Part shown: in pieces, positions 12,628-14,216 of the stretch
How positions within the stretch are numbered: position 1 is the stretch's first letter
Layout: the number at the start of each line of letters is the position of its first letter
NCBI GenBank assembly: GCA_035949375.1
Contig: DASZIG010000122.1
Span: forward strand, 26,491-50,490
From: Terriglobia bacterium
GTDB lineage: Bacteria; Acidobacteriota; Terriglobia; UBA7540
Direction of reading: 5' to 3'
DNA length: 24,000 nt
Notes under the pieces: model-generated
The model's input: the letters and a program-made list of their open reading frames with translations, nothing else
What the model was told of the DNA's origin: nothing
Databases searched by the model: none
Position numbers and translations under genes: made by a program

Positions 12628-12707
12628 GTCGTGCACCTCCTTGTATGGGGTGCGGTGTGTGATGTCGAGCGGGCAGCCACCGCAAGACAAGCGCAGCGAG
12701 CGCCAGA

Positions 12708-12740
12708 GGCGATTAGTCAAGATGCTGACTGACCGTCGCC
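12708..12740 (-). ncRNA. Hairpin resembling the Ro-binding helix of Y RNAs, in the rsr 5' leader
   Basis: The minus strand reads GGCGA-C-GGUCAG-[UCAGCAUC]-CUUGACU-AA-UCGCC. GGCGA/UCGCC gives 5 bp. GGUCAG pairs with the last six nt (UUGACU) of CUUGACU, giving 6 bp that include G-U pairs. The GGUC/GACU core and the 3' strand CUUGACUAAUC resemble the metazoan Y RNA helix (5' UGGUCCGA paired with 3' CUUGACUAGUC). The conserved bulged C is absent. Confidence 0.35.
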
Positions 12741-12796: not shown

Positions 12797-12900
12797 GATA
12801 AGGTTCTATGACTGAGCTACGCGAACCTCGCTGGCCCGCGGCAGGAATCGAACCTGCGGCCTCCGGCTTGCGCCGGCGCTCTACCGAAGTAACCCTTATC
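12797..12900 (-). ncRNA. Circularly permuted tRNA-like RNA (YrlA-like tRNA mimic candidate)
   Basis: The minus strand reads GAUAAGGGUUACU-UCGGUA-GAGC-G-CCGGC-GCAA-GCCGG-AGGCC-GCAGG-UUCGAUU-CCUGC-CGCGGGC-CAGCGAG-GUUCGCG-UA-GCUC-AGU-CAUAGAACCUUAUC. This gives a 5-bp T stem with a canonical T loop, a 5-nt variable loop, and a 5-bp anticodon stem capped by a GNRA tetraloop. The 7-bp acceptor stem (5 Watson-Crick plus 2 G-U pairs) is closed by a 7-nt loop. The D stem GCUC/GAGC forms between the two ends, and the flanks pair (GAUAAGG-GUU with AAC-CUUAUC). The tertiary-interaction nucleotides U8, A14, G15, G18G19, A21, G26, G46, C48, T54-Psi55-C56 and A58 are all in place. Confidence 0.6.
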
Positions 12901-13306: not shown

Positions 13307-13600
13307 AATTCGTTCGCCTCCCTTTGACAGACAAAGCAGTGCAAACAGACAATGTGCAACTCGAAGCTACGGTTTAATCCATCGACGGTGCAAATTCTTT
13401 CGCCGGGGAACACGCGACCAAGCTGAAGCTACGAGCCCTCACCGCCCGGAACCTTGTGTTTCGGAGCTACGCTCCCGTCCCTGAAGGGTCTTGGAGCTCG
13501 CCGGGGCGGCCAGCCCCGCGCTTCGGAAGTGGAGGCGAAGTATCCATGGTCTTTCGCCACCGGCGACAACTATGAAAAGCGTCCCTGGCCAGCGAACAAG

Positions 13601-13690
13601 CGAGCGCGGCCTGAGGACTCGAACCTCCACGCCAGCCCACACCCGGGCCAGCGTGTTCACCGGAGAAGAATCCGCACTCTACGCCACTGA
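13601..13690 (-). ncRNA. Second tRNA-like element (D-arm, short anticodon-like hairpin, long variable hairpin, T-arm); either a Y-RNA-type mimic or a decayed class-II tRNA relic
   Basis: The minus strand reads CGGUC-AGUGGCGUA-GAGUG (D-arm-like, with G18G19 and A21), then CGGA-UUCUUC-UCCG (4-bp stem, 6-nt loop). Next comes CUGGCCC-GGGUGU-GGGCUGG (7-bp variable-arm-like hairpin) and GAGG-UUCGAGU-CCUC (T arm with canonical T loop). There is no adjacent acceptor partner and no CCA. Confidence 0.4.
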
Positions 13691-14216
13691 CCGAACTGTT
13701 ATAACAACAAACCTATGACCTTCCCTTGAGGCGCGACTGCGAACAGCTTCGCGCACAGCGACATCAGGCCGCCCGCCATTCTTCACTGGTCCTGCCTTAT
13801 TCCGCCGGGGGAACAATGGACAGCGGCAGACTTAACAAGGTCGAAGTATCCACCATCGACGCCACCCAGCGATTAAGTTGATGAGGGAACGCGAGTTAAG
13901 AGCGCCGCGGGACTAACGGGCGCTCAAGAGGATGACCAGGAACGCCCGATAGCAACCGGTGCCAGTCTCCGGCAACCGCTGCTCACGCATCGAATTGTTC
14001 GTCGTATCATGCATGACGGACGTTCTCCCAAAATCTCAACTACTATAGCAGAGACTAAATGGGTGGGTCAAGAAAAAAAGACAGTAGTTCAGCGGGAACT
14101 CGCGCGGGGCCCGAGATCCTATTCGTGGTCTCCCGGACCAGGTTCTGCTACTGCGGAACTAGGATGTACGGCGCACTCCCTCGCCAGCGGCTAGTGTCGT
14201 TGTGCCTGCAGCATCT

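Follow-up and report, generated by a model that had tools for sequence, protein, structure and literature searches.

The window analysed here is a stretch of 24,000 nucleotides (nt) of contig DASZIG010000122.1 from a Terriglobia bacterium (Acidobacteriota). Near its middle, on the minus strand, lies an open reading frame (ORF) which contains a Pfam TROVE domain (1.5e-14) and a Ro60 vWA domain, and is therefore rsr, the gene of the bacterial Ro60 orthologue Rsr; it is 72-79% identical to Acidobacteriota rsr genes. Upstream of rsr, on the same strand, a small RNA element is found, and further upstream other genes resembling Y RNAs, the group to which YrlA and the Deinococcus radiodurans Yrn1 belong. 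An earlier note, made from the sequence of the stretch, had described in this element a complete tRNA cloverleaf mimic, circularly permuted through the D loop and lying upstream of a TROVE gene. In this work, the element was followed up by folding, homology searches and covariation analysis. Its fold is conserved in numerous relatives, its helices covary, and it is linked to rsr. We are fairly confident that it is part of an rsr-linked Y RNA, in which a complete tRNA mimic is attached through the D loop and has its D stem closed in trans. As such, it represents a genuine topological variant of the tRNA-like Y RNAs, which is widespread and, it appears, undescribed so far.

All blocks of the tRNA element named in the earlier note were verified base for base, at the positions given there, between 12900 and 12797 of the minus strand (Table 1). 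Read 5' to 3', they follow the order D-loop 3' part, D-stem 3' strand, capped "anticodon" hairpin, variable loop, T arm, capped acceptor hairpin, U8-A9, D-stem 5' strand and D-loop 5' part. The helix formed by the flanks, previously put at roughly 10 base pairs (bp), is only 7 bp long (P2 in Table 1), because the GUU/AAC extension makes use of the UUAC motif, which has no conserved partner. Moreover, this helix is not the end of the RNA: it is followed by an internal loop (UGGUGAA on the 5' side, GAUAGUUCC on the 3' side) and by a terminal helix of 5 bp, P1. Since P2 continues in this way to P1, with the motif GGUGAAG and then UUAC, the element is the head of a Y RNA of about 133 nt, which the covariance model R1 matches end to end with a score of 115.8 bits. 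A single G separates the 5' strand of P2 from the UUACUUC linker, while a linker of 7 nt joins AGU to the 3' strand CCUUAUC.

The minimum free energy (MFE) structure calculated by RNAfold for this RNA (-57.3 kcal/mol, z -2.14) coincides with the proposed fold: it comprises both closing helices, three hairpins and the D stem closed in trans, along with a pairing of GG 12906-12905 with CC 12789-12788. Between the two D-stem strands, which are 60 nt apart, lie the hairpins of the anticodon arm, the T arm and the acceptor, and the entry helix falls within the D loop. The acceptor mimic measures 7 bp, or 8 bp if its loop is taken as 5 nt. Additional GG:UC and CU:AG pairs across the D loop, also proposed by RNAfold, were rejected, as they are not conserved in the family.

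The RNA cannot be a tRNA, as the earlier note had maintained: the acceptor strands are joined by a loop, leaving no free ends, a GCAA tetraloop takes the place of the 7-nt anticodon loop, no CCA is encoded, and ARAGORN finds no tRNA either in the native sequence of the window or in the native RNA alone. The re-permutation suggested in the note gave a different result. When the entry stem was removed, the two halves joined across the D loop and ARAGORN rerun, a tRNA of 74 nt, with stems of 7/4/5/5 bp, was called with the native GCAA loop, and a tRNA-Cys(GCA) with the loop padded to 7 nt; equal re-joining led to a tRNA call in 25 of 39 relatives. A complete cloverleaf mimic with its sole opening in the D loop is thus found by MFE folding, by ARAGORN after re-joining and in the homologues described below, and sequence and MFE fold agree that both acceptor and anticodon arms are capped.

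Table 1. Features of the predicted Y RNA and of its surroundings, in positions of the window.
Feature	Position	Strand	Basis or remark
Full predicted Y RNA, 133 nt: putative Rsr-binding stem and D-loop-split tRNA-like head	12913-12781	-	covariance model R1
P1 5' strand GGCGG (terminal helix, 5 bp)	12912-12908	-	partner 12787-12783
GGUGAAG motif	12906-12900	-	last G doubles as first base of P2
P2 5' strand GAUAAGG (flank helix)	12900-12894	-	partner 12803-12797
UUACUUC linker motif (YUAY of YrlA)	12892-12886	-	alignment and other Y-RNA types
D-loop 3' part GGUA (G18 G19 U20 A21)	12885-12882	-	family conservation
D-stem 3' strand GAGC	12881-12878	-	trans partner 12817-12814
G26; capped anticodon-arm mimic CCGGC-GCAA-GCCGG	12877; 12876-12863	-	covariation
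Variable loop AGGCC, with G46 and C48	12862-12858	-	15:48 covariation
T arm GCAGG-UUCGAUU-CCUGC	12857-12841	-	pairing; Rfam YrlA/tmRNA T-arm alignment
Capped acceptor mimic: CGCGGGC; loop CAGCGAG; GUUCGCG	12840-12834; 12833-12827; 12826-12820	-	
U8-A9; D-stem 5' strand GCUC; AGU (A14 G15 U16)	12819-12818; 12817-12814; 12813-12811	-	
P2 3' strand CCUUAUC	12803-12797	-	covariation with 5' strand
3' internal-loop strand GAUAGUUCC and P1 3' strand CCGCC	12796-12783	-	UUCC invariant
rsr, Ro60 orthologue, 443 aa	12627-11299	-	start 154 nt downstream of the RNA
Two further Y-RNA-like genes, common closing stem	13400-13565; 13586-13692	-	R1, 33.7 and 31.4 bits
Shorter module, closing stem of like type	~13803-13872	-	
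Promoter-like TTGACC-18-TATAGT	14071-14042	-	consensus match only; upstream of the whole cluster

Relatives were collected in two ways. A scan based on the Rsr protein, with one genome per species, gave 75 rsr loci (L001-L075), mostly of Acidobacteriota (Terriglobia), with some of Bradyrhizobium, Rhizomicrobium and others; T-arm motifs are numerous in these loci, almost all of them on the rsr strand and upstream of rsr. Metagenome contigs were searched with a DNA pattern of the split layout (UUACNUC, GGNAGAGC, a gap and GGUUCGA), which fixed GGNAGAGC, hence GGNA and GAGC, and GGTTCGA, and left UAGCUC, N15 and N48 free. The hits of this pattern and the genome loci together provided 40 distinct full-length RNAs of equal architecture, and the covariance model built from them added copies in L032, L040, L096 and the low-GC loci L099 and L109. 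In total, 46 distinct relatives were found, in Acidobacteriota, in Rhizobiales-like and in low-GC contigs; L040 belongs to a cultured strain, Granulicella aggregans M8UP14, and has its split-D copy at L040:2827-2966, which corresponds to about 617209-617348 of NZ_JACHIP010000002.1, minus strand. The same DNA pattern had no hits in viral contigs.

Linkage to rsr is tight. Of 36 metagenome contigs retrieved solely through the RNA pattern, 30 have rsr directly downstream on the same strand, and the remaining six are short. The Rsr proteins of the metagenome contigs fall into an Acidobacteriota-like group, with identities of 66-79%, and a group matching the Bradyrhizobium/Rhizomicrobium loci, with identities of 57-62%. 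The 243 hits of model R1 come from 76 sources and amount to 2-8 Y-like genes per locus; without exception they share the strand of rsr, and nearly all precede the gene.

Covariation was evaluated on two alignments. In a MAFFT alignment of 40 distinct relatives, built without reference to structure, 89% of the cells are paired and both-sided changes occur in 24 of the 33 pairs, with a covariation score of 0.435; shuffling the columns lowers it to 0.16, and sliding the partners to 0.10 or less. In the model-based alignment of the 46 RNAs, 93.8% of the cells are paired and compensatory changes occur in 24 of 32 pairs, with a score of 0.52 against 0.158 for shuffles and at most 0.093 for slid controls. 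In these 46 sequences, compensatory changes are found in four of the five pairs of P1 (98% of cells paired) and six of the seven of P2, hence in 10 of 12 for the two together, in all five pairs of the anticodon arm (94.7% of cells paired), in three of the five of the T stem (98.7% of cells paired) and in all six modelled pairs of the acceptor hairpin. The acceptor, T, anticodon and flank helices, for which the note had asked this check, all vary in a compensatory manner.

Several motifs are also well conserved. In the 40 aligned sequences, U7, G8, G9, G11 and G14 of the GGUGAAG region are invariant and A13 is present in at least 90%, T123, T124, C125 and C126, which form UUCC on the other side of the internal loop, are invariant, and UUACUUC is invariant or nearly so, its UUAC without exception. 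The same motif recurs in other Y-RNA types upstream of rsr, namely in the canonical, D-arm-first and Yrn1-like copies. The family consensus of the first motif is UGG[C/U]G[A/U/C]AG; many members have exactly GGCGAAG, and the window has GGUGAAG, with U for C.

Nucleotides which build the L shape of tRNA are likewise kept in the relatives, as the earlier note had noticed for the window copy: U8, A14, R15:Y48, G18G19 and U54-A58 are all found. Of 44 family members, 43 have GG in the D loop and all have A21, as may be expected from a search pattern which required GGNA. The Levitt pair 15:48 was left free by the pattern: among 44 sequences, and after correction of nine cases where a bulged T stem had shifted the parse, it is G:C in 27, U:A in 8, A:U in 6, U:G in 2 and A:A in 1, and both the A:U and the U:A versions occur in at least three separate lineages. 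This covariation holds whether N15 lies on the 3' or on the 5' segment.

The position of N15 distinguishes two subclasses. In the alpha subclass, with 23 members including the window, the 5' segment has only GGUA and the 3' segment has GCUC followed by A14-N15(-U-C), so that the break is at about 16-17/18. In the 21 members of the beta subclass, the whole loop (AGUNGGUA or AAUGGUA) is on the 5' segment, the 3' segment has only GCUC-A(A), and the break is at 13/14. Such a complementary distribution of the loop nucleotides is what a genuinely split D loop predicts.

For the D stem itself, no compensatory change could be scored, because it is invariant, both in GAGC, fixed by the search pattern, and in GCUC, which was not fixed; co-occurrence at the level of architecture was therefore used. 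UAGCUC, not demanded by the pattern, is present in the 3' segment of 37-39 of the 40 sequences. In the loci selected solely by way of the protein, 128 distinct T-arm elements were counted upstream of rsr. Six of them combine an orphan GAGC in front of the anticodon-like hairpin with an orphan GCUC behind the acceptor hairpin; 59 have canonical local D arms, 61 have neither feature, and the two mixed cases are spurious regex matches. In these rsr-anchored loci, orphan GAGC is always accompanied by orphan GCUC (6 out of 6), a co-occurrence which supports a D stem closed in trans. Copies with GAAG as D-stem 3' strand, found in L012 and L028, pair it locally with the conserved CUUC and have no downstream GCUC.

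These D-arm-first copies (L012:2845-2973 and L028:2834-2965) consist of a D arm CUUC/GAAG, an anticodon-like arm, a T arm and a capped acceptor, with the opening at about 9/10. Another layout was seen in Bradyrhizobium (L049:2491-2615 and L059:2498-2622), where a D-loop-like GUGGUAAG is followed by a capped hairpin and a T arm, with no recognisable D stem; an additional hairpin, capped by GCAA, is found in the 3' segment both of these copies and of the Rhizobiales-like split-D copies.

The trans D stem might nevertheless be dispensed with, if the rsr-linked RNA were a looser, three-hairpin module of the Yrn1 type, with a local 3-bp mini D arm GAGC/UUC and with UAGCUC conserved for another reason, for example a protein contact. 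UUC and GAG can indeed make three pairs, CUUC does take part in a local D arm in the D-arm-first copies, compensatory change is absent from the D stem, and in Yrn1, where no dihydrouridine was found, the D arm has been doubted (Chen et al. 2014, PMC4201824). On the other hand, the trans helix has four Watson-Crick pairs and is the one picked by the energy minimum, while the local version would leave in the window a loop of a mere 4 nt, GGUA. In addition, orphan GCUC occurs only together with orphan GAGC, and N15, when on the 3' segment, covaries with N48, so that this segment belongs to the tRNA core. A structure devoid of the trans D stem is, in our opinion, unlikely.

Stem lengths and loops are more variable than the window copy would suggest. 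Acceptor hairpins mostly range from 5 to 10 bp, 5 and 6 bp being the commonest; the anticodon-arm mimic has a stem of about 4-8 bp and a loop of 2-7 nt (7 being rare), which is of the GNRA type in about half of the members. The canonical stem lengths and the GNRA cap emphasized in the earlier note thus hold for the window copy, but are not conserved traits of the family. A split-D copy on a contig of about 51% GC (L099:457-586, minus strand) has, in place of a short cap, a 5-bp stem with a 7-nt loop CUUUGGA, which resembles an anticodon loop (UUG), and an A15:U48 pair.

This variability bears on a second alternative, compatible with a Y RNA, by which the transcript would be the precursor of a nicked, two-piece tRNA-like molecule, cut by RNase P at the acceptor hairpin and provided with CCA, like the YrlA of Mycobacterium smegmatis, so that its mature form would possess free acceptor ends. 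The 7 bp (or 8 bp) of the acceptor stem in the window fit this proposal, since a 7-bp stem is the determinant of RNase P cleavage in M. smegmatis YrlA (PMC4201824), and ARAGORN accepts the re-permuted acceptor stem. However, with 5 and 6 bp as the commonest lengths among the relatives, a 7-bp stem is not under selection; CCA is not encoded, and most anticodon-arm loops are too short to decode. We give little credit to such a precursor.

The location of the RNA, 154 nt before the rsr start codon, on the same strand and with no terminator-like site in between, could also be that of a cis-acting leader of the rsr mRNA, autoregulatory or tRNA-sensing, rather than of a separate stable RNA. This is very improbable, as each locus has 2-8 copies of the closing-stem module, many of them at a distance of over 1 kb from rsr and with a protein gene intervening, in L004 and L007 the split-D copy is not the one proximal to rsr, and the characterised Y RNAs are cut from polycistronic precursors (PMC4201824). 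Finally, nothing beyond the tRNA-like sequence blocks speaks for a tRNA pseudogene of recent rearrangement or for a resemblance by chance, and both are practically refuted by the conservation of the element across phyla, in 46 distinct homologues with compensatory changes in five helices, and by the tight linkage to rsr.

The closest known relative of the D-loop-split RNA is YrlA (RF02553; PMC4201824, bioRxiv 10.1101/312249), likewise described as resembling a circularly permuted tRNA. YrlA also adjoins rsr on the same strand, has an end stem with a GNCGAAG-type motif followed by YUAY, and shares a nearly identical T arm (GCAGGUUCGAWUCCUGC), the capped acceptor, UAGCUC, GAGC and the tRNA tertiary nucleotides. 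As to the motifs of the end stem, GNCGAAN0-1G on the 5' strand has been proposed as a Ro60 contact, and the conserved YUAY follows it (PMC4201824). The topologies are different. In the Rfam consensus and in the Salmonella Typhimurium structure, YrlA has a T arm, a capped acceptor and an intact D stem-loop, and it is the anticodon-stem equivalent that leads into the Ro60-binding stem (bioRxiv 10.1101/312249), in agreement with what the earlier note had said of YrlA. YrlA is thus opened at the anticodon-stem end, its entry helix occupying the anticodon-stem position, and keeps the D stem-loop intact after the acceptor hairpin, whereas the window RNA is opened inside the D loop, has its D stem in trans and its anticodon arm as a capped hairpin; the note was right in regarding the two as distinct.

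In Rfam with relaxed thresholds, YrlA is the best family for the window RNA, at 23.1 bits against a gathering threshold of 69, and its alignment covers only the T arm, the acceptor hairpin and UAGCUCA, the D arm of the model being forced onto unrelated bases. At gathering threshold, Rfam finds no YrlA in the window or in 14 related loci. In the Granulicella locus (L040), the split copy has no Rfam YrlA hit at E<=1 and the canonical copy scores 39.7 bits. As canonical copies also miss the threshold, the Rfam YrlA model is narrow, and a score below threshold is not informative on membership.

The Granulicella copy at L040:2304-2434 and about 20 of the 61 canonical, D-arm-last copies in L001-L075 have a "V" hairpin of 5 bp, formed in part by the conserved UUC, with a 7-nt loop starting with CU, which in L040:2304-2434 is aligned as an anticodon arm by the Rfam tRNA model (22.9 bits, below threshold). 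Canonical copies with such an anticodon-arm-like hairpin look like tRNAs opened at about 26/27.

Yrn1 of D. radiodurans, by its published description, resembles the window RNA in being linked to rsr, in its YrlA-like T arm, in the closed 5-bp "anticodon arm" with a short loop and in the D-loop-like nucleotides located 5' of that arm, and has the same 5'-3' order. A closed anticodon-like arm was modelled there (Chen et al. 2014, PMC4201824) and is, hence, not new in itself. According to the same authors, Yrn1 has no full D stem, capped acceptor hairpin or dihydrouridine, and its Ro-binding helix keeps both metazoan-like strands; when the two are compared by description, the window RNA differs in that its acceptor hairpin is capped and its D stem is complete and closed in trans.

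A junction in the D loop is already found in nature, in precursors at any rate, in the type I permuted tRNA genes of the red alga Cyanidioschyzon merolae, where it falls at 20/21 (PMC3978253). There, too, the 3' half comes before the 5' half, and in the precursor a loop connects the acceptor ends. These genes produce genuine tRNAs, with a 7-nt anticodon loop, by way of a bulge-helix-bulge, a circular intermediate and acceptor-end processing (PMC3978253). In the window RNA, in contrast, the "anticodon" loop is 4 nt long, and the junction is a continuous 7-bp helix leading into a conserved, putative protein-binding stem, in which no bulge-helix-bulge is apparent, although no search aimed at one was made. 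Bacteria are not known to have the splicing endonuclease. The tRNA-like domain of transfer-messenger RNA (tmRNA), including the two-piece permuted tmRNAs, is also a bacterial tRNA mimic with a tRNA-like T arm, and the Rfam tmRNA model aligns to the T arm of the window RNA with 16.8 bits; this domain differs by its free, aminoacylatable acceptor ends, by having no anticodon-arm mimic and by its lack of linkage to rsr. A D-loop-split Y RNA is not described in the literature searched, to which the supplement of Chen et al. 2014 and subscription reviews did not belong.

Several points weigh against the identification of the element as an rsr-linked Y RNA with a D-loop-attached tRNA mimic and a trans D stem. 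GGUGAAG of the window is one base off GNCGAAG, the folding z-score is modest, and the window RNA does not reach the Rfam YrlA threshold, which is missed by canonical copies as well. For the pairing of the D stem in trans, the evidence consists of co-occurrence and thermodynamics and includes no compensatory change, and the local 3-bp alternative UUC/GAG is possible. Lastly, we infer Rsr binding, transcript ends and function of the window RNA by analogy, and the functional consequence of an attachment through the D loop is purely conjectural.

The arrangement of the locus is in line with that of other rsr loci. Y-RNA-like arrays before rsr have a common closing stem, GCCGG-UGGCGAAGA ... GUUCCCCGGC, and single loci may combine canonical, Yrn1-like, D-arm-first, split-D and headless architectures. 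In the window, the second of the two further Y-RNA-like genes (13586-13692) has a T arm and is of the Yrn1-like type. Between the promoter-like site at the head of the cluster and rsr, no terminator-like site was found. These features would fit a polycistronic expression of the Y-RNA cluster and rsr, as described for D. radiodurans and M. smegmatis (PMC4201824).

Some additional observations concern the regions next to the Y RNA genes. An ORF of 109 aa (13306-12977, minus strand) lies between them, with a good Shine-Dalgarno sequence and a CxxC motif; more than 50 rsr loci have a homologue at the corresponding place (tblastn, 1e-9 to 1e-33), and no match was found in Pfam, NCBIfam, PADLOC or PDB sequences. 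It may code for a so far unrecognised partner of Rsr and the Y RNAs. The segment 12923-12951 (minus strand), which has no U tract, may be a processing site. In the rsr leader, a hairpin at 12705-12737 (minus strand; GGCGA-C-GGUCAG-loop-UUGACU-AA-UCGCC) has strands resembling the Ro-binding helix of metazoa and Deinococcus (GGUC...UUGACUA) and could be a putative minimal Rsr site; its fold z-score is only -1.45, and a simple regex found no GGUC...UUGAC counterpart in the 75 related loci. In other genomes, the Y RNA clusters are directly preceded by arrays of 8-9 tRNA genes encoded on the other strand (L028:51-1515, an Acidobacteriaceae metagenome-assembled genome, and L040:758-1415, Granulicella aggregans), and an Acido-Lenti-1 RNA (L008:5039-5084, Rfam RF01687, 41.1 bits, above threshold) is found about 700 nt downstream of rsr.

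The functional steps that we propose are modelled on the biology of D. radiodurans Yrn1 and of S. Typhimurium and M. smegmatis YrlA. The RNA would probably be excised from a polycistronic transcript containing three other Y-like RNAs, the small ORF and rsr. Its ends are predicted to pair, forming P1, the internal loop GGUGAAG/UUCC and P2, as a putative counterpart of the Ro60-binding module, and Rsr may be expected to bind this stem. The stem would join the tRNA mimic inside the D loop, between about 16/17 and G18; entry at this point implies that the D stem GAGC/GCUC is closed in trans and that both acceptor and anticodon arms are capped. Because the D loop contributes to the elbow of tRNA, Rsr would sit beside the elbow, whereas in YrlA its place is at the anticodon end. 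TruB probably converts U55 of the T loop, at position 12851 of the window, to pseudouridine, and the tRNA-like head may gate the cavity of Rsr, tether Rsr to a partner which recognises tRNA or degrades RNA, such as PNPase, or both.

The attachment points of the stem seen so far are located at about 9/10, ahead of the D stem (D-arm-first copies of L012 and L028), at 13/14 (beta subclass), at 16-17/18 (alpha subclass) and at about 26/27, past the D arm (canonical, YrlA-like copies). Tentatively, and with more doubt than confidence, we suggest that, among paralogues residing together in the rsr loci, the attachment point has shifted step by step around the D arm. If this were true, selection would act on a rigid, L-shaped body which can be freely re-permuted, and each attachment point would show another face of the mimic to Rsr and its partners. 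The split-D forms would then be the missing intermediates between the YrlA order, with T before D, and the Yrn1 order, with D before T, a difference which Chen et al. 2014 (PMC4201824) regarded as pointing to independent origins.

In practical terms, current annotation misses most Y RNAs in soil bacteria, as indicated by the absence of Rfam YrlA matches at threshold in the window and in its 14 related loci. A cultured carrier, Granulicella aggregans M8UP14, makes a D-loop-split Y RNA directly testable, and natural variants in which Rsr is expected at the elbow could be used to test readers of the elbow, such as RNase P and TruB, against readers of the acceptor or the anticodon. As to the tRNA mimic in Y RNAs, the existence of a second, widespread wiring suggests that what is conserved is the complete tRNA shape, rather than a particular connectivity.

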